A stretch of 64,000 bases of DNA, taken from sequence record PQ488502.1. One strand, written 5' to 3'. Below are positions 49,494 through 63,882 of the stretch, one piece after another (positions within the stretch are counted from its first letter, which is position 1; every line of letters starts with the position of its first letter). Made by a program: the position numbers and the translations under genes. This stretch comes from Escherichia phage BUCT632. The notes under the pieces were generated by a model. That model saw nothing but the letters and a program-made list of their open reading frames with translations, did no database searches and had not been told where the DNA came from.

Positions 49494-50132
49494 ATGACTA
49501 CTCGTATTTCTAAAACTCGCGCTCTGGCAACTATCAAATCTCTGGAAGCTAAAATCCGTAAAGCTACTGAACAACAGCTTCTGATCGCTGTTGGTGAAGG
49601 TAAGGATAAAAATAAGGTTGTAGTTGGCGCTGCAATCGAAGTAGATGACCTGTCTACCCGTATTAAGACTGATTTCCAATCTCTGCTGGATATGATGTCC
49701 CAGCGTGATCGTATCAAAGCTGCTCTGATTAAGAGCAATGCAGAAACAATCGTTGAGATTGGTTCTCGTAAAATGACTGTTGCGGAAGCAATTGAAGCTA
49801 AGCGTTCTATGGAGCTTAAAGCTCAACTGCTGGCTAACATGCGTAAGCAGTTCCATGCCGCTACGGTTAAGTTTAATACGCAGAAAGCACAGTTTGATGC
49901 TAAATATGAGCGTTTGCAGGATAGCATGGCTACCCGCGATAAGAAAACTTCCGAAGATGAAGTTAAAATGCAGCTCAACCTGCTGGAACTCAAGAATACT
50001 CCATTCTTGATTGATCCTCTGGAACTGGAGAAGCTGATTAAGCAGCATGACGAGGAATACCAGGACTTTGCAACAAATGTTGACTTTGTTCTGTCCGAGT
50101 CTAACGCTTCTACCTTCATTGAAGTAGAGTAA
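49494..50132 (+). CDS. Hypothetical protein
   Basis: 212-aa ORF with RBS AAGGAAG; helical and coiled-coil-like. Confidence 0.55.
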   Translation: MTTRISKTRALATIKSLEAKIRKATEQQLLIAVGEGKDKNKVVVGAAIEVDDLSTRIKTDFQSLLDMMSQRDRIKAALIKSNAETIVEIGSRKMTVAEAIEAKRSMELKAQLLANMRKQFHAATVKFNTQKAQFDAKYERLQDSMATRDKKTSEDEVKMQLNLLELKNTPFLIDPLELEKLIKQHDEEYQDFATNVDFVLSESNASTFIEVE

Positions 50133-50515
50133 TAATTTAAAAGCTAGTAAATCGGTAGACGAAAGCCCAAGCATCTTACCTCGCAGCAGCGGTTGAAATA
50201 CGAGGTTAAATAAGACCGCTGACCATACTATAAAGTATAATCTATTGGAGATTATGTTTATTACACCAGCCTTTTAAGCTGACACGTAAGAACAAAGCGT
50301 CGTTGATATTACCGACACAACTTCAAAGATAAACATTTAAGTATGAAAGCTGAAAAGTTTAAAGAACTCAAACTTCTAAACTTCTAAAGCTAAAAGATGC
50401 AAAGTATTCGTTGATGATTCAAACCCTAGATCAAAGGTACATGGCTCATAAGATATGGCCTGTGGCGCCTCTAGGCTGTTTATCGGTTTACTAGTTTCAC
50501 AATTTAAAAATGTAT

Positions 50516-50544
50516 TTGCTAATTTACTAAGTTATCTGTATAAT
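50516..50544 (+). promoter_or_regulatory. Promoter (TTGCTA-N17-TATAAT)
   Basis: -35 at 50516-50521, -10 at 50539-50544. Confidence 0.65.
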
Positions 50545-50574
50545 ATATTTTTAAATTGATGAAACGAGGCTATT

Positions 50575-50892
50575 ATGACTTTTCATATTTTGATTGATGA
50601 TGTGCGTAATCTTCACGGAATGGACATTATCATTCGAACCCCAGAAGCCGCTGTAGAGTTTCTGAATAAAACTGATACCACAGGCCATTTCGTTTATATG
50701 GATAATGACTTGGCTGTAGATGGTATGGAAGGTTATCAAATTCTTCGTTTACTCTTAGAATTTGGGCAGAGACCAAAGAAAGTGGTACTAGTAACCTCGA
50801 ACCCAGTAGCTAAGCAAAATATGCGTAATGATTTGCTTGACTTAGGGTATAAAGAAAATCCCAATCGTGTTGAATATGATTGGCAGGAGTAA
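50575..50892 (+). CDS. Stand-alone CheY-like receiver (REC) domain-like protein
   Basis: 105 aa; ILIDDV..., FVYMDNDLAVDGMEGY..., VVLVTSNP...AKQ pattern resembles the Asp pocket / phospho-Asp / Thr / Lys layout of receiver domains. Confidence 0.4.
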   Translation: MTFHILIDDVRNLHGMDIIIRTPEAAVEFLNKTDTTGHFVYMDNDLAVDGMEGYQILRLLLEFGQRPKKVVLVTSNPVAKQNMRNDLLDLGYKENPNRVEYDWQE

Positions 50893-50897: not shown

Positions 50898-51347
50898 ATG
50901 AAGGCAGCTTTGCTTTTAGTAGCTGCCCTTACCTTCAGCTTTAGTAGTCAGGCATCGCACGATGCAAAAGAAATAGATTGCATTGCTAAAAATATCTATT
51001 TCGAGAGTCGTGGTGAGGGCATAAAGGGAATGACGGCGATTGCACATGTTACTAAAAACCGTGTAAACTCCGGTAAATTCCCAGATTCCTACTGTAAAGT
51101 AGTATATCAGTCTAACCAGTTCTCTTGGGTATCTAAGAGACCAAAAGTTGATAAAACCGATGAGGCTTGGCAAACAGCCAAGAATTTAGCTAGAGTGATA
51201 TACTACGTTGATTTACCACAAGATCCTACACATGGAGCACTATACTTCCATAGTGGTAAAGATAAACCTTATTGGACAAAGAAGTTTAAGAAAACAACTA
51301 AGATTAAGGGACATACGTTTTATAAACCTGTTGTCACTAAAACTTAA
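50898..51347 (+). CDS. SleB-like cell-wall hydrolase with signal peptide
   Basis: Signal peptide MKAALLLVAALTFSFSSQA; hydrolase_2-type motifs NIYFESRGE, GMTAIAHVTKNRV, CKVVYQSNQFSW; start taken at ATG 50898. Confidence 0.6.
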   Translation: MKAALLLVAALTFSFSSQASHDAKEIDCIAKNIYFESRGEGIKGMTAIAHVTKNRVNSGKFPDSYCKVVYQSNQFSWVSKRPKVDKTDEAWQTAKNLARVIYYVDLPQDPTHGALYFHSGKDKPYWTKKFKKTTKIKGHTFYKPVVTKT

Positions 51348-51415: not shown

Positions 51416-51586
51416 ATGAAATCAGTTGTAATTATTGGTGTTAACACTCGCGGTATTCGTACTACGAAAACTGTTAAAACATCTAACGTGGCTGAAATTA
51501 CTACTAACCCTAAAAAGTTTGATTTCGCCAAAGTCTCGGCAGTTATGACAGAACAATCTTTTAACCAAGCGTTAGGAATGAAATAA
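51416..51586 (+). CDS. Hypothetical small protein (56 aa), below the ORF-track cutoff
   Basis: ATG after RBS GAGAGGAAG; stop overlaps the next start (TAATG). Confidence 0.45.
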   Translation: MKSVVIIGVNTRGIRTTKTVKTSNVAEITTNPKKFDFAKVSAVMTEQSFNQALGMK

Positions 51587-52029
51587 TGGAAGAGAATATT
51601 TTAGATGTTTTGCGTAGAGCTTTGCAGGATTCTAAGTTTAATGGTTCTGATAAAGAAGTCGCTAAAAGCTACCAGACCATAATCGGGGATCTTCAGCGTA
51701 TTGATAAAGATTTCATCACTTCTGAACAATTTGTGTCTTATCTCAAAGCTCAACTAAAAAGCATTAACCAGATGAAAGCTAAACTTCATGGTCGAGATCT
51801 TGATAGCTATAGCTTACAGTCTGCTCAGTATGAATACATTCTAAATAAGTGGTTGCAGGAGTATCTGCCTCCTCAGTTATCTGATACTGAGATTCGTAAA
51901 TACTTTGCAGAATTAGTTAAGCTAAACCCTGGAATTACAAAGGGTATGCTGATGAAAGCGATTAAGGAAGAATTTCCTGGGCGTTATGATGGTGGTACTG
52001 CTGCTCAGATTGCTGGCGAATTTAATTAA
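51586..52029 (+). CDS. GatB/YqeY-domain protein
   Basis: 147 aa; ...LQEYLPPQLSDTEIRKYF...KGMLMKAIKEEFPGRYDGGTAAQIAGEF matches the YqeY-type pattern. Confidence 0.55.
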   Translation: MEENILDVLRRALQDSKFNGSDKEVAKSYQTIIGDLQRIDKDFITSEQFVSYLKAQLKSINQMKAKLHGRDLDSYSLQSAQYEYILNKWLQEYLPPQLSDTEIRKYFAELVKLNPGITKGMLMKAIKEEFPGRYDGGTAAQIAGEFN

Positions 52030-52074: not shown

Positions 52075-52863
52075 AAATTAGGGAACAGCGAGCCGATTAC
52101 GCTGAGTGCAGAATCCCAACCGGAGCGCATTGAATAGAGTCGGTGGGTTAGTTGTAAAACTAGTACACAGGGGGCGGCAATCCCGGTTAGTGGCTAGAAC
52201 GTGTAAAATGAGGCGTCTGAAACCTCTCCCCTAAACTCTTCTCTAATTTATAAATAGTGGGGTGTGGAAATCACTTATGTAGTAACACTGCCGTCCTAGT
52301 ATAATTGGTATTATCAAGCCGTAACTGGTGGAAGATGTAGGTTCGAATCCTACGGTCGGTAAGAACTGGATAACTGATGCTTTTAACGTAAAAGCTTCCG
52401 AGGTTAGTTGCGCACTGCCTAAACCACGCGGTAGTTGGTTCCAGACTAACCAACCAGTCTGCTGAATAGTTTTATTACGATTTAACTATGTCCAGGCTAA
52501 AGAAGAACTTTAGAAGGTATTCTAGGATAGTGAAGTTCTTTCTCCATATCGGAGTAGTTTTTCAAGCTATCCACAAAGTGGGAAATGCTGACATGAGAGA
52601 TGTCACTAATGGTGCACAATAGCACAGGTAATTCGCGATAACTCCTGTTGAGTAGCAGCAAAAGGCGGGAAGTCATGACCCCAAGCCTAACCGAGTCCTC
52701 AATATACCGCAGGATATAACCACTAAGTCACCCTGACTTAAACTGGAAAATAATAGACGTTACCGTATTTTGTCTTGAAATACTTAATGAGTGAGACTTA
52801 TGACTCTCCCGGTATCGTCTGTATTTTTAAGAGTTTTTACGAGAGTTCTTAAAAATACTTAAA
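52075..52863 (+). ncRNA. ORF-free transcribed region with tRNA-like T-arm hairpin (candidate structured stable RNA or precursor leader)
   Basis: About 790 nt without an ORF of 60 aa or more, downstream of a strong promoter; canonical T-arm GTAGG-TTCGAAT-CCTAC at 52337-52353 without a foldable cloverleaf. Confidence 0.3.
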
Positions 52864-52938
52864 CGGGGTGTAGTCTAAGGGAGAGGCAGGAGTCTTCTAA
52901 ATTCCTTTATGCAGGTTCGAATCCTGTCACCTCGGCCA
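52864..52938 (+). tRNA. tRNA-Arg (anticodon TCT)
   Basis: Hand fold: acceptor CGGGGTG/CACCTCG, anticodon loop CTTCTAA, T-arm GCAGG-TTCGAAT-CCTGT, encoded CCA. Confidence 0.7.
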
Positions 52939-52972
52939 ATTTTATTAACTGTAACTAAAACAAAGGAAACAT

Positions 52973-53920
52973 ATGTTTAATACTAAAAATATGAAAGAAC
53001 TGACTTCTGAGCAGAAAGTAATTCGTACTATTAAACGTTGGGGTATTGGTGCTGTAGTTGGTTTAGCAGGCTTGATTCTAGCTTTTAATTCATATACTAT
53101 TGTTTCTGATGGTACGGTTAAAACCCAAACATTCCTGGGTAAAGTAGATCCTAATCCAGTATTGCCTGGTTTCCATCTTGTAAATCCGTTTGCATCTTTC
53201 GATACTTTTAGTACAAAAGATATTGCTGTAAAATTAGATAAACTTCAGGTTCCTAGCCAGGATAAGTTTAAATCCACTGTTGACCTGACTGTTATGTTGC
53301 AGTTTGATGGTTCTAAGGCACCGATTAACCGTATTAACGCAGGTACTCAGGATCAGGCACTAGACAAGTATGTAACTGAAAAATTATTGTCTACTATTCG
53401 TGAGTTTGGTAAGTCTGTACCTAAAGCACAAGATTTGTTTGATGCTAAAATTCAGGCTCAATTACAAACTGCAATTCAACAGGAAGTTGAAGAGTATGCA
53501 CGCCCATATGGTTACACAGTTAAGCAGGTGTTCCTTCAGGATATTACTCTGCCACCAGTAATCATGGAGCAGGTACAGAATACCAAAGTTCGTGAAGAGC
53601 AAGTTAATGCTGCGAAAGCTGAACTGGCTCGTGTTGAACAGGAAGCACAGCAGAAGGTTAAACAAGCAGAAGCAGATCGTGAAGCTCGTAATAACCAAGC
53701 TATTGCTAATGAACGTGACGCAGATGCTAAACTGTATGCAGCTAAGAAAGAAGCTGAAGCTAACGCCGCACTGCAACGTACCATTACTCCTGAGATGATT
53801 CGTTGGAAACAACTGGAAGTTGAAATGATTCGTGCTCAGAAATATCAAGGTGGTGTACCGCAGACTGTGGTTGGCACTGGCTATGATGGCCAAATGATTA
53901 TGGATATGCGTAATAAATAA
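52973..53920 (+). CDS. SPFH/band-7 (prohibitin/HflC-like) membrane protein
   Basis: N-terminal transmembrane segment (WGIGAVVGLAGLILAF), band-7-like core, C-terminal Ala/Glu/Gln-rich coiled coil. Confidence 0.6.
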   Translation: MFNTKNMKELTSEQKVIRTIKRWGIGAVVGLAGLILAFNSYTIVSDGTVKTQTFLGKVDPNPVLPGFHLVNPFASFDTFSTKDIAVKLDKLQVPSQDKFKSTVDLTVMLQFDGSKAPINRINAGTQDQALDKYVTEKLLSTIREFGKSVPKAQDLFDAKIQAQLQTAIQQEVEEYARPYGYTVKQVFLQDITLPPVIMEQVQNTKVREEQVNAAKAELARVEQEAQQKVKQAEADREARNNQAIANERDADAKLYAAKKEAEANAALQRTITPEMIRWKQLEVEMIRAQKYQGGVPQTVVGTGYDGQMIMDMRNK

Positions 53921-53938
53921 TACCCGCATGTAACATCT

Positions 53939-54035
53939 GAAGTAAGCCCTGCGTTCCCTGGAGAGCGCAGGGTTTTTCTGTATTTAAGATAAAAGAAAAG
54001 CCCCTAAGTCTTTCGACTAGGGGCTTTATTGTTTG
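53939..54035. terminator. Two terminator hairpins between convergent genes
   Basis: CCCTGCG...CGCAGGG+TTTTT and CCCCTAG...CTAGGGG+TTTATTGTTT. Confidence 0.6.
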
Positions 54036-54244
54036 GTTCTTTAGAACCATATACTCTTATTACAGCAACCACCCATACGGGAGGCCAATCTTGACTGAAA
54101 ATCTACTCTAGGGGGCAGGATAAGAGTAGGCTTAAAGGCAAACGGATTGAACGCCGGTATTTGCGTAAACATTGCTGGAGAGCAACAACGTGCTACAGGC
54201 ATTGGGCAGCACGAAACAGATTTTCTGCAACACATAATTCCTCC

Positions 54245-54661
54245 TTAGGAGTTATTACCACCATTTTGAGCTTTTGCAACTTGGCTTTGGCAGAAGCTAT
54301 TAAACTTACCCATAAGTGATACAAGCTGTTTCCCATCCTCTGTCTTTGCGAAGTCTTCGAAAAGGGCTAGTACTGCCTGTCCTTCCGCAGAAACCTGCGA
54401 TTGTTGGGTTTGTTGCTGAACTTGCTGCTGCGGCACCTGTTGCTGCATTTGTTGAGGCATTTGCGACTGCCCGCTCATTTGCTGCATCATTTGTATAGGA
54501 CTCACACTTCCAGGGTTTTGCTGGAGTTGTTGCTGCATCTGTTGCGCTTCTGCTAAACGCTGTTGCAATTGTTGTAAGTAGGGGTTATCCAGACCCGGAA
54601 TGGGCTGCTGGGAGCCCATACTTTGATTAAGTCCGTTATTTACAAAACCATATTTACTCAT
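54245..54661 (-). CDS. Gln-rich hypothetical protein
   Basis: 138 aa with long Q/M-rich low-complexity region; RBS GGAGGAG upstream. Confidence 0.5.
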   Translation of the reverse strand: MSKYGFVNNGLNQSMGSQQPIPGLDNPYLQQLQQRLAEAQQMQQQLQQNPGSVSPIQMMQQMSGQSQMPQQMQQQVPQQQVQQQTQQSQVSAEGQAVLALFEDFAKTEDGKQLVSLMGKFNSFCQSQVAKAQNGGNNS

Positions 54662-54682
54662 AATGGGCTCCTCCCCTTAATA

Positions 54683-55672
54683 TTAAGCCGGCAGTTTAGC
54701 CTGCAGACCAGCCAGAGTCTGAGTGATAGCACCAAGACTTAAAGCGATTTGATTAATTACCTGACCGTTAGCACCGCTACCTGCAGCGATTGCTTCACGT
54801 AGGCGACATGCATCTAACTCATCCTGGATACGCGCAGTAGTTACACCAGCGATCGCAGTCTGAAGTTCACAGCAACATTCAGCGATCTGACGTTCCAGAG
54901 AGTTCTGGTTAGCACACATCTGAGCCTGAACAGCGGCAAACTGGTTATTAGTTTGTAAAGTCTGCTGGAAAGCGATCTGTGCAGAATCAAACTTATCTTG
55001 TGCACGAGCTATCTGGTTAGCTGCGAAAGATTGATCAATCTGGCGAGAAAGATCGAACTGACCCTGAATAACGTTGCGAGTTTCCTGGCAGATCTGATTA
55101 GATAGATTAGCACCTGTACCATAGATCGTAGTTAGTACAGACTGAGTATCACGGCTCTGGTTTTGGGATGTCTGGCTAAAACCATTGTTAACTGCGCTTA
55201 AAACAGCTCCAGTACCCTGGTTAGCTTCTGTACGAGTAGTGTTAATAGCTGCTAGAATACTAGCGGTATCTTGGTTCTGAAGTACTGCATCAACTGCGGT
55301 ACCTTCACCAACTACACCACGTCCACCGAATCCACCGAAACCACCGAATCCGCCTGTTAATAGAGCACCGATTAGGATAGCTCCGAATAGTCCCATACCT
55401 TCACCACCGAAAGCACCTGCGTTTGCTGGGTAACCACCCAGTAGGCCAGGGAAGCCACTAGTGAATACGTTTACTGGTTCTTGCATTTTATGTTTTCCAT
55501 ATTTATGACAATGTTCATCATCATCTTCTTCATCATCTTCATCGTGTTCGCGATGTTTCTCTTCGTAGGCTCTGACCTTCTCCCACTTTTTCTTATCTGA
55601 TTCCTCGTGACGGTGCAGTTCTGCTGCAACGCTAGCGACGGTCTCAGGACTCTTAGCTACTTCTTCTGTCAT
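54683..55672 (-). CDS. Hypothetical protein with acidic His/Asp/Glu stretch, Gly-rich GGFGGFGGFGG segment and Gln/Asn-rich helical C-terminus
   Basis: Start taken at ATG 55672 after RBS AGGAGGTG (ORF track extends to 55732). Confidence 0.5.
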   Translation of the reverse strand: MTEEVAKSPETVASVAAELHRHEESDKKKWEKVRAYEEKHREHDEDDEEDDDEHCHKYGKHKMQEPVNVFTSGFPGLLGGYPANAGAFGGEGMGLFGAILIGALLTGGFGGFGGFGGRGVVGEGTAVDAVLQNQDTASILAAINTTRTEANQGTGAVLSAVNNGFSQTSQNQSRDTQSVLTTIYGTGANLSNQICQETRNVIQGQFDLSRQIDQSFAANQIARAQDKFDSAQIAFQQTLQTNNQFAAVQAQMCANQNSLERQIAECCCELQTAIAGVTTARIQDELDACRLREAIAAGSGANGQVINQIALSLGAITQTLAGLQAKLPA

Positions 55673-55879
55673 TTTTTGACACCTCCTAGTATATAGAAAA
55701 TGTGTGTCTCTTTGATCACTCATCCATAACATATACTTTACACTACCCCAGCGAAAATGTCAAGGGGTCTTTAAAAATTGCCCCCGGATTTTTAGTGGGG
55801 TCACAAATTTTGGTCCTCACCACTTATCTGCTACCCTTAAGTGCCCTATGATTTTCCTCTAAAAAGTTAAAAAATTTGA

Positions 55880-55908
55880 TTGCTTGAATGCTAAATTCTC
55901 TGTATAAT
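55880..55908 (+). promoter_or_regulatory. Promoter (TTGCTT-N17-TATAAT)
   Basis: -35 at 55880-55885, -10 at 55903-55908. Confidence 0.65.
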
Positions 55909-55938
55909 ATATCTATAAATTTGAGAGAGGAACCAAAT

Positions 55939-56457
55939 ATGAATGTTGATGAGCTAACACAGCACCTCTTATCTAGAGGATTTGATACAGATAAATATCA
56001 TTGCTGGTTAAGTCCGGAAGGGTGGCTAACAGTCCCGTTGTATGATTTCTCTGGAATGTTGAGGGGCTATCAAACTTATAATCCTTCTGCTCCAAAAGGT
56101 CATGGTAAGTGCCCATTTGAAGCTAAATACTTTACTTATTCTACTACACAGTGTGTATGGGGACTAGAAACTCTCAATGGAGATGAAAAAGTAGTATTGA
56201 TCGCTGAATCTGTATTTAAGGCAGTTGCGTTACATAATGCGGGTTATCCAGCCCTGGCAATGTTGGGTTCTTCTCCAGGAAAAGCGTTATTAAAGCAACT
56301 GAAATTACTACCTTTTAAATTGGTAGCTGTTGGAGACAATGATCCCGATGGTGAAAAATTTGCTAGACAATTAAATGGATTTGTTTCTCCTGTAGATGTA
56401 GATGAGATGTCTACCGAAAACTTGAAAAATTTTCTTGCTATGAAGCTAAATTTCTAA
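55939..56457 (+). CDS. Small Toprim-domain protein
   Basis: About 172 aa; ...VVLIAESVFKAVALHNAGYPALAMLGSS...LVAVGDNDPDGEKFARQL resembles a Toprim fold (conserved E and DxD). Confidence 0.5.
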   Translation: MNVDELTQHLLSRGFDTDKYHCWLSPEGWLTVPLYDFSGMLRGYQTYNPSAPKGHGKCPFEAKYFTYSTTQCVWGLETLNGDEKVVLIAESVFKAVALHNAGYPALAMLGSSPGKALLKQLKLLPFKLVAVGDNDPDGEKFARQLNGFVSPVDVDEMSTENLKNFLAMKLNF

Positions 56458-56463
56458 TATAAT
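56435..56463 (+). promoter_or_regulatory. Promoter (TTGCTA-N17-TATAAT) embedded in the 3' end of the Toprim ORF
   Basis: -35 at 56435-56440, -10 at 56458-56463. Confidence 0.6.
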
Positions 56464-56478
56464 ATATCTTATAAATTC

Positions 56479-56567
56479 GGAAGAATAGCATAACGGTATT
56501 GCAGCAGATTGCTAATCTGTCGGTTTGAAATATAGCCTTGTGGGTTCGATTCCCACTTCTTCCGCCA
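56479..56567 (+). tRNA. tRNA-Ser (anticodon GCT), type II
   Basis: Acceptor GGAAGAA/TTCTTCC, anticodon loop TTGCTAA, long variable arm, T-arm GTGGG-TTCGATT-CCCAC, CCA. Confidence 0.7.
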
Positions 56568-56573
56568 GATTTT

Positions 56574-56651
56574 GGTTCTCAAGCTCATATGGTATGAGCA
56601 CCCGGCTCATAACCGGAAGGTACGTAGGTTCGAATCCTCGGGGAGCCACCA
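56574..56651 (+). tRNA. tRNA with CAT anticodon (Met or Ile2), weak T-stem
   Basis: Acceptor GGTTCTC/GGGAGCC, D-arm GCTC...GAGC, anticodon loop CTCATAA, TTCGAAT T-loop with only 3 T-stem pairs, CCA. Confidence 0.45.
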
Positions 56652-56669
56652 ATTAAATAGAGGTCACAA

Positions 56670-56858
56670 ATGGATCTATATATAGTTTATGTTGTGTTTA
56701 TTCAAGATAGAGAATACCCGGGTGAATATAAAAAAGGATATAGGTTAGCCAGAGCTACCTCTGAAGCCCAAGCTATGGATAAAGTGGCGGATTATATGAT
56801 TACAGTAGAAAACGTACACTATATCGACTACCTTGAAGCCTCAAAAGTAATTGACTAA
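56670..56858 (+). CDS. Hypothetical small protein
   Basis: 62-aa ORF with RBS. Confidence 0.45.
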   Translation: MDLYIVYVVFIQDREYPGEYKKGYRLARATSEAQAMDKVADYMITVENVHYIDYLEASKVID

Positions 56859-56865
56859 ACTACAC

Positions 56866-56942
56866 GGGGGTGTAATCGAATTGGCATAGGTACTGGACTT
56901 AAAATTCAGGTTTTGTGGGTTCGAATCCCACCACCCCTACCA
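56866..56942 (+). tRNA. tRNA-Leu (anticodon TAA) with short variable loop
   Basis: Acceptor GGGGGTG/CACCCCT, Leu-type D-loop GAATTGGCATA, anticodon loop CTTAAAA, 5-nt variable loop, T-arm GTGGG-TTCGAAT-CCCAC, A73, CCA. Confidence 0.55.
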
Positions 56943-56957
56943 AATTAAGGAAATAAG

Positions 56958-57125
56958 ATGTATAGACATCCACCTCCGCCAACACGTCGTTCTAGGGAAG
57001 TCGTCCTTATGGAATTGACTAAAAACTTCAAGGCAACTCTTGAAGATAGAGATCTGGGCACGGATGAAGACATTGATTTTATTTGTAGACTATTAAAGAT
57101 GAAACTGGAGAAACAACATGGCTAA
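56958..57125 (+). CDS. Hypothetical small protein (55 aa), below the ORF-track cutoff
   Basis: ATG after RBS AAGGAAA. Confidence 0.4.
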   Translation: MYRHPPPPTRRSREVVLMELTKNFKATLEDRDLGTDEDIDFICRLLKMKLEKQHG

Positions 57126-57324
57126 TCCTGAAATTACCGCACAACGTTTCATGCTTAAAGGCATGATTGCTGAGGCAGGTATAACTCAAGAGGTTGCAGA
57201 TTTTCATAAGCAATTTCTTGACATTATAACTCTAGCTAAAGAGACTGGAGAAAAAGAACATGGAGCGGCAATTATGGCTATATCTCTTATTAGTCTAGAC
57301 TTGGCTGAAGAATCTGGAGTTTAG
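57118..57324 (+). CDS. Hypothetical small protein
   Basis: 68-aa ORF. Confidence 0.45.
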   Translation: MANPEITAQRFMLKGMIAEAGITQEVADFHKQFLDIITLAKETGEKEHGAAIMAISLISLDLAEESGV

Positions 57325-57354
57325 CTCCTCCAAACAGAATTTTTAAAAATGTAC

Positions 57355-57384
57355 TTGCCTTTTGCTTTAAATTTCTGATATAAT
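57355..57384 (+). promoter_or_regulatory. Promoter (TTGCCT-N18-TATAAT)
   Basis: -35 at 57355-57360, -10 at 57379-57384. Confidence 0.6.
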
Positions 57385-57414
57385 AGTTATATAAATTGAT
57401 GAAGGAGTTAACGA

Positions 57415-57690
57415 ATGCAAAATCGTGTTATAGCTGCTGGTATTGAAAGTGCAATCTGTAAATCCTGGGAAGGCTGGGAAGGTGAGATTGAATGGCTTTA
57501 TTTCTACGATGTAGAACTTCTGCCGGAAATTAAAGCTAAATGTATTGAAGCTGGCATGGCTCCAGATGCAAAAGCTGATATTGATATTTCAATGTCTGAA
57601 CTTAAAGGTCGTGTAATCACTGTTAGTGATGAGGGCGAAGAAGTTTTTGAACTTCCATTCTCCTTAACTGTCACTCCTAAGTTCGACTAA
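57415..57690 (+). CDS. Hypothetical small acidic protein
   Basis: 91-aa ORF with RBS GAAGGAG. Confidence 0.5.
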   Translation: MQNRVIAAGIESAICKSWEGWEGEIEWLYFYDVELLPEIKAKCIEAGMAPDAKADIDISMSELKGRVITVSDEGEEVFELPFSLTVTPKFD

Positions 57691-57726
57691 CTAATACAGC
57701 ATTGGGCAAGTTCTTTAAAATTTGAC

Positions 57727-57755
57727 TTGCTCAGTGCCTTAAAACTTGATATAAT
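57727..57755 (+). promoter_or_regulatory. Promoter (TTGCTC-N17-TATAAT)
   Basis: -35 at 57727-57732, -10 at 57750-57755. Confidence 0.6.
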
Positions 57756-57879
57756 AGTTATCTAATTTGGAAACATATCTGAATGAGAAGTAATTAGGCG
57801 AGTTGCTTTTAGGGGTAAAGTCAGGAAATCCTGAAATATTCCACCTTGAGTTTAACCGACTTACTTTTCATTCAAATAT

Positions 57880-57960
57880 GGGGGATTGGCTCAGCGGCGA
57901 CGGCGCCTGGCTGTAGACCGGGTATATCACGCGGAGGTTCGAGTCCTCCATCCCCCACCA
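57880..57960 (+). tRNA. tRNA-Tyr (anticodon GTA)
   Basis: Acceptor GGGGGAT/ATCCCCC, 3-bp D-stem, anticodon loop CTGTAGA, 10-nt variable region, T-arm GGAGG-TTCGAGT-CCTCC, CCA. Confidence 0.7.
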
Positions 57961-57978
57961 AATTACTAAGGAAGTAAT

Positions 57979-58524
57979 ATGCACAATAAGTTAATAAATG
58001 AGCTTCAAAAAAGACAGATAATAACAAAAACTAAGGAGTTTGATATAACTCCAGATTTAATAGTTGAATGCTCGAAAGTTTACTTAGAGTTAAGTAATAC
58101 AAAGGCTAAGAAAGTCTCCTTAGGAGATCTTAGATATAATGTTAAACTATTGTGCTTATCCTTAATTAAATTTAAGCAAAAAAATAAACTTCCCATAAAA
58201 GAAGGCTTCATATATTTTATAGCAAATAAGGCCTGGCCCAATTATTTTAAGATTGGTATGTCAGCTAACCCAAAGAAACGCTTAGCAAACTATCAAACAT
58301 ATAGCCCTTTTAGGGACTATACAATGCTACACTGGTCTTTCTGGTTTGATAGAAAGGAAGGCAAAAAGTTTGTCCATAGCCTCTATCAAGATAGGGATCA
58401 TGAATGGGTTAAGTTGCCTCGAAGAAAACTAAATAAAATATTTGAACAAATTAATAAACTTTCTGGCTTGGAACATTTAGTACAGAAAGTTAATAAAGAA
58501 ATAGTTAATGCACCTATCGTCTAA
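57979..58524 (+). mobile_element. T5orf172/GIY-YIG-like domain protein gene (putative homing-endonuclease-like element)
   Basis: GFIYFIANKAWPNYFKIGMSANPKKRLANYQT matches the T5orf172-type motif; AT-rich codon usage; 3' end overlaps the start of tRNA-Glu by 15 nt. Confidence 0.6.
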
Positions 58525-58584
58525 TGGTTAGGACATCAGGATTTCAATCTGAGAATCGGAGTTCAATTCTCCGTGGGTGTACCA
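58510..58584 (+). tRNA. tRNA-Glu (anticodon TTC)
   Basis: Acceptor GCACCTA/TGGGTGT, D-stem GTCT/GGAC, anticodon loop ATTTCAA, T-arm CGGAG-TTCAATT-CTCCG, CCA. Confidence 0.6.
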
Positions 58585-58592
58585 ATTTCTGC

Positions 58593-58669
58593 ATTCCTAG
58601 AGTGTTACTGGACAGCATGTCGGTCTCCAAAACCGTACGGTCTAGGTTCGAGTCCTAGTAGGTTTGCCA
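58593..58669 (+). tRNA. tRNA-Trp-like (anticodon CCA) with two U-U mismatches in the acceptor stem
   Basis: Anticodon arm TCGGT-CTCCAAA-ACCGT, T-arm CTAGG-TTCGAGT-CCTAG, acceptor ATTCCTA/TAGGTTT (5 of 7 pairs), CCA. Confidence 0.45.
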
Positions 58670-58675
58670 AAATTT

Positions 58676-58750
58676 GCACCTTTAGCTGAGATGGATTAGC
58701 GCTTGCCTGAAGAGCTTGAGAGGTTCGTTCGATACGAACAGGGTGCACCA
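58676..58750 (+). tRNA. tRNA-Phe-like (anticodon GAA), imperfect anticodon stem
   Basis: Acceptor GCACCTT/AGGGTGC, D-stem GCTG/TAGC, anticodon loop CTGAAGA, T-arm GTTCG-TTCGATA-CGAAC, CCA. Confidence 0.45.
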
Positions 58751-58767
58751 AATTGAAGGAGCTGCTG

Positions 58768-59040
58768 ATGCATCCTGAAAACTTCTTTATTTACTGCGCG
58801 GATAAGTCGCTGAAACGTAGAATTAACAAAGTCTATCATTATCGTGCTAGTCAACAGCCTTATGTATACGCTTTTGACGGTGATCACATTCCACTAGAAC
58901 AATTATCTTGTGATTACATGATATTGAAGAACTTTGACGAGACGAAGATCTCAAGCGTTCATAATCGACAGAATCCATTAACGTGGAAATATAAGAAGAA
59001 AAAGAAAGGCATCAAATTCTTAAAAAATGTAGTTGCTTAG
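58768..59040 (+). CDS. Hypothetical protein
   Basis: About 90 aa from ATG 58768 after RBS GAAGGAG. Confidence 0.5.
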   Translation: MHPENFFIYCADKSLKRRINKVYHYRASQQPYVYAFDGDHIPLEQLSCDYMILKNFDETKISSVHNRQNPLTWKYKKKKKGIKFLKNVVA

Positions 59041-59061
59041 TTTCCAAAAGTTCTGTATAAT
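59033..59061 (+). promoter_or_regulatory. Promoter (TTGCTT-N17-TATAAT)
   Basis: -35 at 59033-59038, -10 at 59056-59061. Confidence 0.6.
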
Positions 59062-59109
59062 AATTACATAAATTGAACTGGAGAAGCAACATGACAGAAC
59101 AAGATAAAT

Positions 59110-59185
59110 CGACCGTTGGCTGAATGGCTTAGGCGAAGGATTGCAAATCCTTTTTATGTGAGTTCAAATCTCATGCGGTCGTCCA
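59110..59185 (+). tRNA. tRNA-Cys (anticodon GCA)
   Basis: Acceptor CGACCGT/GCGGTCG, anticodon arm AAGGA-TTGCAAA-TCCTT, T-arm GTGAG-TTCAAAT-CTCAT, CCA. Confidence 0.65.
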
Positions 59186-59187
59186 AT

Positions 59188-59327
59188 TTGCTGAAAGAAT
59201 TGTTAAATCAATTCAGGCACGCGTAGGAACACTGTCTCCGTAATTGAAAGATGGGGCACGGTTTGGAGAGGTATGCCGCTACACGCTACGGTGCTAACTC
59301 CGTCTAGGTGAAAATCCTAGTCAGCAA
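59188..59327 (+). ncRNA. tRNA-like structured RNA candidate (about 140 nt)
   Basis: Perfect 7-bp terminal pairing TTGCTGA (59188-59194) with TCAGCAA (59321-59327) next to a T-arm-like hairpin CTAGG-TGAAAAT-CCTAG; no canonical cloverleaf. Confidence 0.3.
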
Positions 59328-59337
59328 TGTAAATTTA

Positions 59338-59420
59338 GGGTCGTTAGCCAAGCGGTTTGGCGGCGGATTGTTAATCCGTGTCGAAAGACAACGTAGGTTC
59401 GAATCCTACACGGCCCGCCA
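59338..59420 (+). tRNA. tRNA-Asn-like (anticodon GTT) with unusually long variable arm
   Basis: Acceptor GGGTCGT/ACGGCCC, 3-bp D-stem, anticodon arm GCGGA-TTGTTAA-TCCGT, 13-nt variable region, T-arm GTAGG-TTCGAAT-CCTAC, CCA. Confidence 0.55.
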
Positions 59421-59522
59421 AATTCTGTGTAGAGTTAAGTAAACCGGTAGCCAATCAGCTATCATTGCTGACATCGAATTCAGCCACAGATACCATTTTC
59501 ATTAATAACTGAGGAAACAAGC

Positions 59523-59708
59523 ATGTCCAAGAATGTAATTGCACAGTTAGAAGTTCATCGTGATAGCACTATCAACAATATTGAAGTTGAGAAGAAATAC
59601 ATCGAAGAACTTAAACATGATATACTAGTAAGTCTTAATCGTCTTAATGTACGAAAAGAGTTTCTTAAAGAACTTAATGCAGCTATTGAAAAACTCAAAG
59701 CTGAGTAA
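59523..59708 (+). CDS. Hypothetical small protein
   Basis: 61-aa coiled-coil-like ORF. Confidence 0.45.
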   Translation: MSKNVIAQLEVHRDSTINNIEVEKKYIEELKHDILVSLNRLNVRKEFLKELNAAIEKLKAE

Positions 59709-59717
59709 ATGAATTAT

Positions 59718-59794
59718 GCGACCGGGGCTGGCTTGGTAATGGTACTCCCCTGTCACGGGAGGGAATGTGGGTTCAAATCCCATCGGTCGCGCCA
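59718..59794 (+). tRNA. tRNA-Asp (anticodon GTC)
   Basis: Acceptor GCGACCG/CGGTCGC, anticodon arm CTCCC-CTGTCAC-GGGAG, T-arm GTGGG-TTCAAAT-CCCAT, CCA. Confidence 0.7.
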
Positions 59795-59820
59795 AACTAA
59801 ACTAGCACGAGAAAAATGCT

Positions 59821-60168
59821 ATGATTAATGCTAAAGAAGAATTGTTACTTGCCCTAAAGAATACTAATTCTGAAGTTAAGTGTATTAAGATAGAATTCGG
59901 TTATTATGGGGACAAAGAAGTTTGGGTATTACCCGTAGGTTATACAGAAAAAGATATTGAAGATTTTCTAAATAATCTAGACTTTAAATATGATTCTGGT
60001 TTCGGTGGACAATTGCTTTATGGTAACGTATGGTTTACTGATGGAACTTGGTTAGAACGTGGTGAATATGATGGTTCTGAATGGTGGGAGTATAAGACTA
60101 CACCAGCAATCCCTGAGGAATGCCGAACAATTAATGGTGAGGTAGATAATACTTTACGGTTAAACTAA
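59821..60168 (+). CDS. Hypothetical protein
   Basis: 115-aa ORF. Confidence 0.5.
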   Translation: MINAKEELLLALKNTNSEVKCIKIEFGYYGDKEVWVLPVGYTEKDIEDFLNNLDFKYDSGFGGQLLYGNVWFTDGTWLERGEYDGSEWWEYKTTPAIPEECRTINGEVDNTLRLN

Positions 60169-60289
60169 TAAAATTTCAGTGCAGAACACGGAGCTAGCAA
60201 TTCGGAAGTGCTGACTCATGATAAGCTGCCTATGTACTTGCGAAGCGGTCGTGTCCAAGACTCGGACTCTTGCACTGAAAACAATCAAA

Positions 60290-60411
60290 CATTCTAGCGT
60301 GGTTGATGGGGAAACCAGCTTGGCGAGGGCAGAAGCTCGTTCGATTCGAGTGAAAGAATGGTTCTCGTAAGTCCGCACAAGTGATAACAGGTTCGAGTCC
60401 TGTCTAGAATG
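60290..60411 (+). ncRNA. tRNA-like structured RNA candidate (about 120 nt)
   Basis: Perfect 7-bp pairing ATTCTAG (60290-60296) with CTAGAAT (60404-60410); canonical T-arm ACAGG-TTCGAGT-CCTGT at 60387-60403 and a second T-arm-like hairpin GCTCG-TTCGATT-CGAGT at 60334-60350; no foldable anticodon arm. Confidence 0.3.
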
Positions 60412-60560
60412 ACACTATAAAGTTTACTTATTATGTAGGTTCCGGTAGATCGGCGGGTCTATTCTGGCATTTAAGAGGGGTCTCGCAAACTTCTTTGTCA
60501 GCCGTGGGGTTGGTAGCCTCCAGGCGGCCTACACAATAAGTAAATTTATTAAAAATTCAT

Positions 60561-60589
60561 TTGCTATTCTGCTTAATTCTCTGTATAAT
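60561..60589 (+). promoter_or_regulatory. Promoter (TTGCTA-N17-TATAAT)
   Basis: -35 at 60561-60566, -10 at 60584-60589. Confidence 0.65.
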
Positions 60590-60621
60590 ATATTTTATAA
60601 AGTGAAGAGAAGGAAAGCAAA

Positions 60622-60780
60622 ATGAAACACAAGATAGCTCAAGTTTTTATGGCATTATGGTGTATGCCAATAGCTGTAACAGCTTTTAATCTAGATACTT
60701 TTACTATAGAAGAAAAATGTATCGGATTAGTTAGCGGCTTTAGTATGCTTGGCTTATCTTTGTTGTGGTTGAAGAAATAA
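60622..60780 (+). CDS. Hypothetical small hydrophobic protein (52 aa), below the ORF-track cutoff
   Basis: ATG after RBS GAAGGAAAG; two hydrophobic segments. Confidence 0.45.
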   Translation: MKHKIAQVFMALWCMPIAVTAFNLDTFTIEEKCIGLVSGFSMLGLSLLWLKK

Positions 60781-60784
60781 TATT

Positions 60785-60862
60785 CTCCGTGTAGCTCAGT
60801 TTGGCCAGAGCGTTTCGTTTGGGGCGATAGGGTCGGGGGTTCAAATCCTCCCACGGAGACCA
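60785..60862 (+). tRNA. tRNA-Pro (anticodon TGG)
   Basis: Acceptor CTCCGTG/CACGGAG, D-stem GCTC/GAGC, anticodon loop TTTGGGG, T-arm GGGGG-TTCAAAT-CCTCC, CCA. Confidence 0.65.
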
Positions 60863-60868
60863 AACAAT

Positions 60869-60946
60869 TGCGGGTTAGATCTCTGGTAGAGATCGCTAGT
60901 CTCATAAGCTAGAAAGAGGTAGGTTCGATTCCTGCACCCGCTTCCA
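60869..60946 (+). tRNA. tRNA with CAT anticodon (Met or Ile2), U1-U72 mismatch
   Basis: Acceptor TGCGGGT/ACCCGCT, D-stem GATC/GATC, anticodon arm CTAGT-CTCATAA-GCTAG, T-arm GTAGG-TTCGATT-CCTGC, CCA. Confidence 0.6.
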
Positions 60947-60966
60947 TTTTAATAGGGGATTTCGAA

Positions 60967-61134
60967 ATGAAAGTATTTCGATTAGTAGTAAGTGACAAAC
61001 GTTTAGGTAAGAATACCTCAAAATCATTACTTGCTCATTATGGTAAAAATTGGGATGAAGTAATGGTAGAGTTTAATACTAATCACCCTTACTTGAAAGT
61101 TCACTCTATTAAAGAAGTATACAATGGTTACTAA
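60967..61134 (+). CDS. Hypothetical small protein (55 aa), below the ORF-track cutoff
   Basis: ATG 60967; stop just before tRNA-Lys. Confidence 0.4.
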   Translation: MKVFRLVVSDKRLGKNTSKSLLAHYGKNWDEVMVEFNTNHPYLKVHSIKEVYNGY

Positions 61135-61135
61135 T

Positions 61136-61214
61136 AGATCGCTAGCTCAATAGGTTTAGTAGCATCCGACTTTTAATCGGAAGGTTCTGGGTTCGAGTCC
61201 CAGGCGATCTACCA
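61136..61214 (+). tRNA. tRNA-Lys (anticodon TTT)
   Basis: Acceptor AGATCGC/GCGATCT, anticodon arm TCCGA-CTTTTAA-TCGGA, T-arm CTGGG-TTCGAGT-CCCAG, CCA; long D-loop. Confidence 0.65.
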
Positions 61215-61232
61215 ATTTCAAGAAAAACGCAG

Positions 61233-61261
61233 TTGCTTGATGCTTAATTTCTTGTTATAAT
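61233..61261 (+). promoter_or_regulatory. Promoter (TTGCTT-N17-TATAAT) followed by a perfect hairpin
   Basis: -35 at 61233-61238, -10 at 61256-61261; GATGAGGA-GAAA-TCCTCATC at 61275-61298. Confidence 0.6.
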
Positions 61262-61499
61262 ATTTATATAAATTGATGAGGAGAAATCCTCATCATAGTT
61301 CACTAAGGTATTAGCTCGACCTAGGACTGGCTGCCAAAAAGCACGATCCCCATGATTCGGGAGAAGTTCTAGATTGGTCCACTAGATTCAGCGGCAACTG
61401 AATAGTGTATTGGGTTTGCGAGATGACGCAGTTCCTTCCGCTCGAAGCGAAGGTGCTGTAGTTACGCCGAGCTAATAGCCTTAGTAAACTAAAGAATTT

Positions 61500-61578
61500 G
61501 GGGAATGGGTCTGCATGGAGTGGACACCTCGCTTGCACCGAGGACATCAGAACGGTTCGATTCCGTTATTCTCCACCA
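61500..61578 (+). tRNA. tRNA-Ala (anticodon TGC) with G3-U70 pair
   Basis: Acceptor GGGGAAT/ATTCTCC with G3-U70 wobble, D-stem GTCT/GGAC, anticodon arm CCTCG-CTTGCAC-CGAGG, T-arm AACGG-TTCGATT-CCGTT, CCA. Confidence 0.65.
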
Positions 61579-61583
61579 AATAC

Positions 61584-61660
61584 GCGTGATTGATGGAATT
61601 GGCATACATACCGTCCTTAGAAGTCGGGTTTTGAGGGTTCGAATCCCTTGTCACGCACCA
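61584..61660 (+). tRNA. tRNA-Leu (anticodon TAG) with short variable loop
   Basis: Acceptor GCGTGAT/GTCACGC, Leu-type D-loop GAATTGGCATA, anticodon loop CTTAGAA, 5-nt variable loop, T-arm GAGGG-TTCGAAT-CCCTT, A73, CCA. Confidence 0.55.
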
Positions 61661-61772
61661 AATTTGATGGTCAGAGTAAATTAAACCTACTATCTCGGTT
61701 GAGCTGTTTTAATGGGTTCGAATCCCAGCGAGGCGTAACTGCCTGGTGTGATAGAGGCATCATCTTATTATT

Positions 61773-61863
61773 GGAAGAGCAAATCGAATTGGCGACGAAA
61801 ACCGCTTGGAAAGTGGCTGACTGGTAAAACGGCTTGAGAGTTCAAATCTCTCCTCTTCCGCCA
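61773..61863 (+). tRNA. tRNA-Ser (anticodon GGA), type II
   Basis: 91 nt; acceptor GGAAGAG/CTCTTCC, anticodon loop TTGGAAA, long variable arm, T-arm GAGAG-TTCAAAT-CTCTC, CCA. Confidence 0.6.
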
Positions 61864-61882
61864 AACACTTGAGGTAATAATA

Positions 61883-62230
61883 ATGCTAGCAAAAGATAAA
61901 GCTCTAGAGTTTTTAGCATCTTTAGATGAAGATAAGATTATAGATGCTGCTGAAAAAGCTGGAATGCCAGATTTAACATATCTGGAACGTGCTATTATTG
62001 CTCGTGATAAACTACAGAAAGAGTTTGCTATTGCTCAGGAGGAGTTTTATACTCGCTATAACGCTCTTACTAAGCAAATTGAAAATGAGTGTTCTCATAC
62101 TTGGGGAGTAACAGAAAACCTAGGTAATGATCACGATGGCTGGTCTAAAGTAAAAATTACCTACTACCATCGTAGGACTTGTAAAATTTGTGGAAAAGTA
62201 GAAAACTTCACTAGTACGAGTGACTATTAG
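61883..62230 (+). CDS. Hypothetical protein with C-terminal Cys/His pairs
   Basis: 115-aa ORF; CSHTW...CKICG. Confidence 0.5.
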   Translation: MLAKDKALEFLASLDEDKIIDAAEKAGMPDLTYLERAIIARDKLQKEFAIAQEEFYTRYNALTKQIENECSHTWGVTENLGNDHDGWSKVKITYYHRRTCKICGKVENFTSTSDY

Positions 62231-62243
62231 TATAATAAATACT

Positions 62244-62333
62244 AGAAGATAGGACGTAGTGGTATGTAACTGGTCTTGAAAACCAGCCCGCTGTAGTGAT
62301 ACGGTGATGGTTCGACTCCATTATCTTCTGCCA
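62244..62333 (+). tRNA. tRNA-Ser (anticodon TGA), type II
   Basis: 90 nt; acceptor AGAAGAT/ATCTTCT, anticodon arm CTGGT-CTTGAAA-ACCAG, long variable arm, T-arm GATGG-TTCGACT-CCATT, CCA. Confidence 0.7.
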
Positions 62334-62353
62334 ATTAACTATAAGGAAATCTT

Positions 62354-62527
62354 ATGAGCAAAACAGTTACTGTAACAATGAAGGATGGTAAAAAATTTAA
62401 AGCATGTCTTCATGAAACAGATAAGGGATGGATGGCTTATTTGCCACACCTAGATTCCACCGGGTACGGAATGACCCAACGTGAAGCTATTGTTGATGCT
62501 TTAAATGAGGCTTCTGCTGGTTTATAA
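62354..62527 (+). CDS. Hypothetical small protein (57 aa), below the ORF-track cutoff
   Basis: ATG after RBS AAGGAAA. Confidence 0.4.
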   Translation: MSKTVTVTMKDGKKFKACLHETDKGWMAYLPHLDSTGYGMTQREAIVDALNEASAGL

Positions 62528-62534
62528 AAATTCT

Positions 62535-62667
62535 TGAAGTATGCCGGAATTGGTAGACGGGGCTGCCTAAAAGGTTTATAGAGAACATCCACTCTCTACA
62601 ACATACCTCATAAAGCGGCTGAGATAAATGGTCTATCTCGTGAAGGTTCAAGTCCTTCTGCTTCTTG
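62535..62667 (+). ncRNA. tRNA-like structured RNA candidate (about 133 nt) with Leu-type D-arm
   Basis: 5' half TGAAGTA-TG-CCG-GAATTGGTAGA-CGG resembles a tRNA-Leu acceptor/D-arm; 3' half has T-arm GAAGG-TTCAAGT-CCTTC and acceptor strand TGCTTCT (6 of 7 pairs); about 60 extra nt between; no CCA. Confidence 0.3.
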
Positions 62668-62895
62668 ATACATCTATGGCTCAAAGTGTAACGGTGCTAT
62701 TTGATGCTCTTAGTAAGACTTCCCCGACATGCGTTCGGGAGTAAGCTGCTAAGGCTAGAGTAGAAGAGTTTCTGAGAGCCGCCACAATTGAAAATTCGTA
62801 CTCGTCTTGAGCTGCGTGCAATAGGAGATAACTTGATTAGTATTCTAGAACATGCTAATTGAGGAAGGTTTCGCTAACCCTGCGAGTTTTCAATT

Positions 62896-62972
62896 GTGGC
62901 TATATTATAATTGGTTAATGATCCTGATTGTGAATCAGGCCTATGTGGATTCGAATTCCACTAGCCACCCCA
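62896..62972 (+). tRNA. tRNA-His (anticodon GTG)
   Basis: Acceptor GTGGCTA/TAGCCAC, anticodon arm CCTGA-TTGTGAA-TCAGG, T-arm GTGGA-TTCGAAT-TCCAC, CCA. Confidence 0.75.
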
Positions 62973-62997
62973 AATTAACTTAAATAGGAAATAAAAT

Positions 62998-63198
62998 ATG
63001 GCTGATTTCTGCAAACAATGCTCTATTGATATGTGGGGTAAAGATACTGGTGATCTTTCTGGTTTGATTACAGAAGCTGAAGTTAAAGAAGGTTACGGTG
63101 CTGTTGTGCTTTGCGAGGGATGCGGAGTTATTCGTGTAGATCATGAAGGCAAACGTCTAGAAGAACCAGAACCAATAGCCACGGTTCCTGTAGAGTAA
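62998..63198 (+). CDS. Small zinc-ribbon-like protein
   Basis: 66 aa with CxxC (CKQC) and CxxC (CEGC) pairs. Confidence 0.5.
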   Translation: MADFCKQCSIDMWGKDTGDLSGLITEAEVKEGYGAVVLCEGCGVIRVDHEGKRLEEPEPIATVPVE

Positions 63199-63206
63199 AG
63201 AATTAT

Positions 63207-63282
63207 TGGAGTGTAGATCAATTGGCAGATCGTCGGCCTCTGACTCCGAAGGTTCCTGGTTCGATCCCAGGCACTCCAGCCA
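63207..63282 (+). tRNA. tRNA-Gln (anticodon CTG)
   Basis: U1-A72 acceptor TGGAGTG/CACTCCA, D-stem GATC/GATC, anticodon loop CTCTGAC, T-arm CCTGG-TTCGATC-CCAGG, CCA. Confidence 0.7.
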
Positions 63283-63288
63283 AACAAT

Positions 63289-63364: not shown

Positions 63365-63372
63365 AATAATAA

Positions 63373-63448: not shown

Positions 63449-63464
63449 ACTTTAAGGAAACATT

Positions 63465-63873: not shown

Positions 63874-63882
63874 CGGGTTTTT
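63861..63882 (+). terminator. Terminator hairpin
   Basis: CCCGTTGAAATAACGGG followed by TTTTT. Confidence 0.65.

Follow-up and report, generated by a model that had tools for sequence, protein, structure and literature searches.

In a window of 64,000 nucleotides of DNA from Escherichia phage BUCT632 (PQ488502.1), analysed here as a whole, a small gene encodes a protein of 105 amino acids that resembles the CheY-like receiver domains of two-component signalling, and the locus raises the question of what a phage does with a receiver that stands alone. A sequence-only reading had suggested that such an orphan receiver could act as a phosphate sink or as a decoy against host two-component signalling. 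The phage is T5-like (Demerecviridae, Tequintavirus) and is 98.6% identical over 4 kb to the Salmonella phages 8sent1748 and 3sent1.

The open reading frame has the start, stop and length that had been ascribed to it, and it is preceded by a strong promoter-like site of the sigma-70 type and a ribosome-binding site (Table 1), the T5 reference record carrying an annotated promoter at the equivalent place 5' of T5.084. The gap of ~440 bp upstream of the gene (50133-50574) contains no plus-strand ORF of at least 40 amino acids, no Rfam match at the gathering threshold and no terminator-like site, and the T5 record likewise has no annotated gene in the corresponding gap. The cREC gene, as we call it after its family (see below), is kept in 493 phage records, nearly all of them from T5-likes and KVP40-like Vibrio phages. 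Twelve synonymous and four non-synonymous codon differences separate it from its T5 orthologue (dN/dS = 0.020/0.229 = 0.09), a ratio that indicates purifying selection and that, together with the conservation of the gene in the 493 records, identifies it as a real, selected gene rather than a chance ORF. The orthologue is labelled in the T5 reference record as a hypothetical protein 'similar to KVP40.0304', and elsewhere the gene appears as 'hypothetical' or, in some phage records, as 'cell division response regulator'.

Table 1. Positions of the features discussed, in the window and (last three lines) in metagenomic loci of other cREC lineages. Codons are numbered by residue of the cREC protein; fractions give the family members that keep the residue.
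Feature	Position	Strand	Remarks
Two paralogous DUF7415 proteins	34983-35411, 34581-34973	-	After HAD_SAK_2
HAD_SAK_2 'Swiss-army-knife' RNA-repair phosphatase	35414-35926	-	PF18143, E 2.8e-20; overlaps Sir2 by 20 nt
Sir2	35907-36722	-	PF02146, E 2.5e-25; ~14 kb from cREC, other strand
Sigma-70-type promoter-like site, TTGCTA-17 nt-TATAAT	50516-50544	+	10/12 matches; ~30 nt 5' of cREC start codon
Ribosome-binding site, GAGG	50566-50569	+	5 nt 5' of cREC ATG; read from sequence
cREC gene	50575-50892	+	ATG at 50575, stop ends at 50892; 105 aa; PF20274; orthologue of T5.084 (YP_006912.1)
D8, D9 and R11 codons	50596-50607	+	D8 159/160, D9 159/160, R11 151/160; in the loop replacing alpha1
R21 codon	50635-50637	+	158/160; no counterpart among conserved receiver residues
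D43-N44-D45 codons	50701-50709	+	D43 160/160, D45 159/160; DxD motif
T74-S75-N76 codons	50794-50802	+	T or S at 74 in 160/160; N76 158/160, family-specific
SleB-like cell-wall hydrolase (T5.083 orthologue)	50898-51347	+	PF07486, E 2.2e-25; partial match to TIGR02869; 6 nt after cREC stop
DUF7616 ORF	51416-51586	+	E 4.7e-33
YqeY/GatB-like protein (T5.081 orthologue)	51586-52029	+	PF09424, E 1.7e-5, 25.4 bits, under cut-off of 27; T5 annotation
Array of 20 tRNA genes	52864-63957	+	Starts 1,972 bp 3' of cREC stop
L7/L12-like gene beside cREC, locus L018	5562-6119	+	C-terminal-domain match
L7/L12-like gene beside cREC, locus L025	7404-7766	-	C-terminal-domain match
L7/L12-like gene beside cREC, locus L003	8306-8659	+	C-terminal-domain match

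Compared with the Pfam models, the protein scored 56.8 bits against PF20274 (cREC_REC, 'cyclic-phosphate processing receiver domain'; cut-off 27, E 3.8e-15), the match spanning residues 4-87 of the protein and positions 2-86 of the 88 in the model, and 12.5 bits against the canonical receiver model PF00072, which lies below the cut-off of 30.2 (E 0.17). With CheY itself an hhalign profile alignment reached a probability of 38%. The protein also matched PHROG 1479, a group of unknown function (E 4e-30), and its best BFVD matches were named cREC. Identical or near-identical proteins are called 'cyclic-phosphate processing receiver domain-containing protein' in UniProt and NCBI, and the cyclic-phosphate processing receiver name is also used in one GenBank phage record (HMD-7). 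A search of NCBIfam with the protein gave no match, and a PDB sequence search returned only spurious matches to designed beta-trefoils and sub-threshold matches to CheY; none of the solved structures was a close match.

Searched with a profile, a set of 1.84 billion representative proteins yielded 431 relatives at E <= 0.001, almost all of which are stand-alone proteins of 95-125 amino acids (median length 106), and the lack of an output domain noticed at the outset is thus a trait of nearly the entire family. In a diverse subset of these relatives all 145 matched PF20274, while five of the 145 weakly matched PF00072. We have next to no doubt that the protein belongs to the cREC family and has a receiver-like fold. 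The family was defined by comparative genomics (Iyer, Anantharaman, Krishnan, Burroughs and Aravind, 2021, PMC7824862; see also Iyer et al., 2022, PMC9503650), and since both the family and its Pfam model are catalogued, with orthologues already so named, the protein is an already known member and no discovery. A literature search for experiments on T5.084, PF20274 or cREC retrieved nothing beyond these two papers from the Aravind group.

An AlphaFold2 model of the protein built on 41 homologues (mean pLDDT 93.3, pTM 0.85) has strands at residues 4-7, 18-20, 39-42, 69-72, 92-94 and 100-103, and helices at residues 23-32, 53-62 and 77-89. In the model the elements follow the order beta1-loop-beta2-alpha2-beta3-alpha3-beta4-alpha4-beta5-beta6, i.e. 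a truncated receiver fold in which a 10-residue loop replaces alpha1 of CheY, with no helix between strands 4-7 and 18-20, and a beta hairpin replaces alpha5. Structure prediction had been proposed as a check of the REC fold, and its outcome is receiver-like, minus these two helices. The loss of alpha1 extends beyond the present protein: among the 160 non-redundant cREC family members in which conservation was counted, the stretch between the DD pair and the position of R21 comprises 8-21 residues (median 11), too few in most members to accommodate alpha1.

The motifs picked out from the sequence are all present (DD at 8-9, YMDND at 41-45, VTSNP at 73-77 and AKQ at 79-81), and the greater part of the receiver set that they were thought to form is retained. 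In the hhalign profile alignment, from which all equivalences with CheY are taken, D8 and D9 pair with CheY D12 and D13, D43 with the phospho-acceptor D57 and T74 with T87, giving four of the five members of the receiver quintet Asp-Asp-Asp-Thr/Ser-Lys; the Lys is absent. The Lys of AKQ (K80) had been assigned this last part, which both the alignment and the spacing rule out: CheY K109 pairs with N95, a position that is variable in the family (Lys in 24/160), and K80, with which helix alpha4 begins, follows T74 by six residues, against the 22 residues that separate the Lys from the Thr in CheY. A basic residue occurs at the K80 position in 108/160 members. In the same alignment D45 (D+2) corresponds to CheY N59, and Y92, kept in 145/160 members, to the switch residue Y106.

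The invariants R11, R21, D45 and N76 are specific to the family, in which G47 (Ala in this protein), G53 and P67 are further near-invariant positions; the T5-like clade deviates from the family consensus in having Ala at G47 and Trp at a basic residue near the C-terminus. The published description of cREC covers the catalytic aspartates; to it we add the loss of alpha1 and alpha5, the lack of the Lys and the invariance of R11, R21 and N76.

In BUCT632 the cREC gene heads a plus-strand run comprising the SleB-like hydrolase, the DUF7616 ORF, the YqeY-like gene, a second promoter-like site, the RNAX region, a tRNA-Arg gene and 19 more tRNAs. The SleB family also neighbours cREC in one of the other loci that we recovered (L036). 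No RNA-repair gene lies directly beside cREC in this phage, the neighbours being the SleB-like hydrolase and small ORFs, and the link of cREC to RNA repair and NAD in the window is one at the level of the genome (i.e. Sir2 and HAD_SAK_2 at ~14 kb and the tRNA array at 2 kb). A pairing of Sir2 with HAD_SAK has been described for the T5-like phage SP15 (PMC9503650), and we regard the two genes as candidate pathway partners of cREC. RNA ligases of the Rnl1 type or the PF09414 type were not detected in T5-like phages by tblastn: the Rnl1 query found only 14 Salmonella-phage records, cREC itself being present in 269, and with the PF09414-type query neither Salmonella nor Escherichia was among the ten commonest organism names.

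Neighbourhoods in other phages were surveyed in 26 cREC lineages with a mutual identity below 70%, their loci being found by scans with the back-translated motif LVT[SA]NPVGR; two of the 26 recovered loci (L020 and L029) were without cREC. On the IMG/VR contig L019, cREC (2886-3191) is followed by an AAA_33 kinase, an Rnl1-type ligase (RNA_lig_T4_1) and a Metallophos_2 protein, all with overlapping gene ends, and further 3' by a second metallophosphoesterase and a PF09414 RNA ligase. The kinase is of the kinase-only type (149 amino acids), so that cREC and the metallophosphoesterases would fill the place of the Pnkp phosphatase domain. In Escherichia phage EF1-1 (L037) a cREC-like ORF (3152-3508, plus strand; E 1e-6 with the family HMM) is followed by one ORF, a phosphoesterase, an RNA ligase and an ATPase, and then by a ligase and MazG; the Rnl1 proteins of EF1-1 and L019 share ~46% identity. 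These two operons reproduce the 'type 2' neighbourhood published for the family (PMC9503650).

In Streptomyces phage BillNye a PF09414 ligase is encoded 3 kb 5' of cREC and a tRNA 1.7 kb 3' of it. Five lineages (T5-like, KVP40-like, L013/L015/L023, L012 and BillNye) have tRNA genes less than 2 kb from cREC; a universal linkage of cREC with tRNAs was considered and rejected, as many loci, several of them short, have no tRNA. A gene resembling the C-terminal domain of L7/L12 is found directly 3' of, and overlapping, cREC in three unrelated metagenomic lineages (E ~1e-8; Table 1). Most of the 26 lineages have only small unannotated ORFs, nucleotide-metabolism genes or L7/L12-like genes nearby, and the most recurrent neighbours (i.e. 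DHFR, thymidylate synthase, L7/L12-like, SprT-like and Metallophos) each occur in 2-3 lineages; PhoH is also recurrent, and L011 has an HD_4 hydrolase gene close to cREC. No single neighbour is conserved across the lineages, and neither a Nudix nor a Macro gene occurs among the annotated immediate neighbours.

Several known systems bear on what the pocket might do. With the cREC family as published, the protein shares the Asp pair and the DxD motif, the stand-alone length of ~100 amino acids, the presence in a phage and the lack of a nearby histidine kinase, and it differs in that the gene is not adjacent here to the RNA-ligase, Nudix or Sir2 partners that define the family. HAD phosphatases, including the 3'-phosphatase/cyclic phosphodiesterase domain of T4 Pnkp, carry a DxDxT motif. 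Like these enzymes, cREC would use one Asp as nucleophile and has another at +2, and an acyl-phosphate intermediate is proposed; unlike them, it has its DxD after beta3 of a receiver fold rather than after beta1, and it lacks both the Thr at +4 and a cap or flap. Membership in the HAD superfamily was rejected on motif position and fold, and it is a HAD-like way of working that may apply, by analogy. The 2H phosphoesterases (LigT/CPDase) share the predicted job of cREC, which is to open cyclic phosphates of the 2',3' or 1''-2'' kind in the pathways of RNA repair and of ADP-ribose (PMC9503650), but they have an unrelated fold and their HxT/S motifs are missing from cREC, and the analogy with them is functional only.

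That the protein is a cyclic-phosphate phosphoesterase, acting on RNA ends or on ADP-ribose, is a plausible assignment that we make tentatively; the same function was put forward by Iyer and co-authors, as a prediction only (PMC7824862, PMC9503650). The pocket residues kept in at least 158/160 members (R11 in 151/160), the RNA-repair operons of L019 and EF1-1, the nearby tRNAs and the presence of Sir2 and HAD_SAK_2 in the genome all point towards an enzyme. In the mechanism that we propose, cREC would be made early from its own sigma-70 promoter and would work as an enzyme and not as a signalling switch. D43, placed in a putative acidic Mg site like that of CheY, would be the nucleophile that attacks a cyclic phosphodiester. 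Likely substrates are tRNA or other RNA that has been cleaved to leave a 2',3'-cyclic phosphate end, or ADP-ribose 1''-2'' cyclic phosphate. By analogy with the second Asp of the HAD DxD motif, D45 (D+2) could serve as general acid/base and protonate the leaving ribose hydroxyl, while R11 and R21 may hold the phosphate or the backbone, and water would then free a linear phosphomonoester.

The product would be handled in this phage by the pair of Sir2 and HAD_SAK phosphatase or by host enzymes, and in other phages by the polynucleotide kinase, Rnl1-type ligase and metallophosphoesterases encoded beside cREC. The role during infection might thus be to heal tRNA or RNA damaged by nucleases, or to clear cyclic-phosphate by-products derived from NAD; as no RNA ligase was detected in T5-like phages, it would there be a healing step without an obvious sealing partner of phage origin. 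In its fullest form, which we rate as possible though on the doubtful side, the proposal is that cREC is the first true enzyme with a receiver fold to act on nucleic-acid or nucleotide substrates, using an Asp-phosphate intermediate to open the 2',3'-cyclic phosphates of nuclease-cut tRNAs or those derived from NAD, and that in T5-likes it works with the phage tRNAs, Sir2 and HAD_SAK to counter anticodon nucleases or NAD-based immunity.

The proposal that prompted the analysis, in which the orphan receiver is phosphorylated by host histidine kinases or acetyl phosphate and thereby serves as a sink or decoy against two-component signalling, appears highly improbable, even though the Asp-Asp-Asp-Thr part of the quintet is intact, the fold is receiver-like, five of the 145 relatives weakly match PF00072 and some records use the label 'cell division response regulator'. 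Canonical receivers (CheY, Spo0F; PF00072) do have an acidic pocket and a Thr at equivalent positions, but the Foldseek TM to them is only ~0.55, the protein has no alpha1, alpha5, conserved Lys or kinase partner and departs from their (beta-alpha)5 architecture of five strands and five helices, its PF00072 score stays under the threshold, and its family has an invariant Asp at D+2, an invariant Asn at T+2 and two invariant Arg (i.e. D45, N76, R11 and R21) that are not found in receivers. The residues that give response regulators their kinase specificity are carried mainly by alpha1 and the beta5-alpha5 loop (Capra et al., 2010, PMC2991266), and these docking elements are missing from the protein. 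The pocket residues are near-identical in phages of enterobacteria, Vibrio, Bacillus and Streptomyces, and a pocket so nearly constant across Gram-negative, Gram-positive and actinobacterial hosts is hard to reconcile with adaptation to the kinases of any one host. According to the literature, the family never occurs with histidine kinases and is associated instead with genes of RNA repair and of NAD/ADP-ribose processing (PMC7824862, PMC9503650); we saw no histidine kinase in the annotated T5-like, KVP40-like, BillNye and Eldridge contexts or in the Pfam tables of three metagenomic contigs. The sub-threshold PF00072 score, the missing alpha1, alpha5 and Lys and the linkage to RNA repair and NAD all speak against the decoy role, and phage 'orphan CheY-like' proteins of ~100 amino acids should be compared with PF20274 before a two-component role is proposed for them.

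Receivers are typically switches, and a non-catalytic cREC, the pocket of which would bind a phosphate-bearing ligand or become phosphorylated, could be a small regulator or adaptor, e.g. of the translation apparatus or of tRNA handling. The conservation of Y92 at the position of CheY Y106, the L7/L12-like ORF that adjoins or overlaps cREC in three unrelated lineages and the YqeY-like gene located 3' on the same strand here all favour such a role; nevertheless, the alpha4-beta5-alpha5 output face of receivers is truncated, the invariance of D45, N76, R11 and R21 around the pocket resembles that of an active site and no partner gene is conserved across lineages, and we consider this explanation improbable. 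Less so, though still unlikely in our estimation, is that cREC performs the proposed chemistry on a small molecule (i.e. ADP-ribose 1''-2'' cyclic phosphate, cADPR-type immune signals or 2',3'-cNMPs), either blunting host defence signalling or recycling nucleotides. Iyer et al. give this as an equal alternative, citing Nudix-cREC fusions and linkage to Sir2, Macro and NADAR (PMC7824862, PMC9503650), and it would suit a phage that has Sir2 and no detectable RNA ligase, the anti-Thoeris gene tad3 that lies ~700 bp 5' of cREC in L019, the HD_4 hydrolase of L011 and the recurrence of DHFR, thymidylate synthase and PhoH. Sir2 is, however, ~14 kb off and on the opposite strand in this phage, no Nudix or Macro gene is among the annotated immediate neighbours, and the tightest operons that we verified are classical sets for RNA end-healing and sealing.

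Should the phosphoesterase assignment prove true, catalysis by cREC would be a new enzymatic use of the receiver fold, and it would clarify how large tRNA-rich phages meet RNA-cleaving or NAD-consuming host defences. T5 gene 084 offers a clean single-domain representative of the family, of 105 residues, in a tractable model phage.

A number of smaller observations were made on the genes around cREC. The SleB-like hydrolase has a signal-like hydrophobic segment at its N-terminus, and its orthologue T5.083 is annotated as 'endolysin', even though T5 carries its lysis cassette separately (T5.040/041). The T5 record labels T5.105, the orthologue of the HAD_SAK protein, as a second 'Sir2'. The ORF at 49494-50132 (plus strand, 212 amino acids), without a Pfam match, is called 'tail fiber protein' in T5 (T5.085) and in many relatives although it lies among early genes, a label that is probably a propagated mis-annotation. 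Two plus-strand matches to the Rfam tRNA model were not called by ARAGORN. The first (52290-52361, 35.5 bits) falls in the stretch of the T5 'RNAX', listed in the T5 record as a stable RNA with no function assigned; the second (56574-56648, 40.3 bits) occupies the position of the T5 tRNA-Ile2(CAU), beside tRNA-Ser.

Others concern the loci of other phages. On contig L019 a gene for Tad3, an inhibitor of type I Thoeris, is encoded at 1719-2165 (plus strand; PF25185, E 2e-35), so that an anti-defence gene and RNA repair, in the form of the cREC-kinase-Rnl1-phosphoesterase operon, occupy the same island, with DUF2828/DUF7788 and a second RNA ligase further 3'. The adjacency of L7/L12-like genes and cREC is an unexplained, translation-related linkage. 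The cREC-like ORF of EF1-1 is annotated as 'putative RNA ligase and tail attachment protein' and a nearby coiled-coil ORF as 'hol-like chemotaxis protein', and both labels look wrong; the latter protein, beside the RNA ligase, was considered as the cREC of this phage and rejected, having no match to the family HMM. In one T5-like lineage the cREC domain forms the C-terminal part of a larger product (P0062, 273 amino acids), and in the GenBank record of Salmonella phage Kenya-K44 (H71) an 'HNH endonuclease' is annotated over the cREC match, which suggests the insertion or fusion of a homing endonuclease just 5' of cREC.
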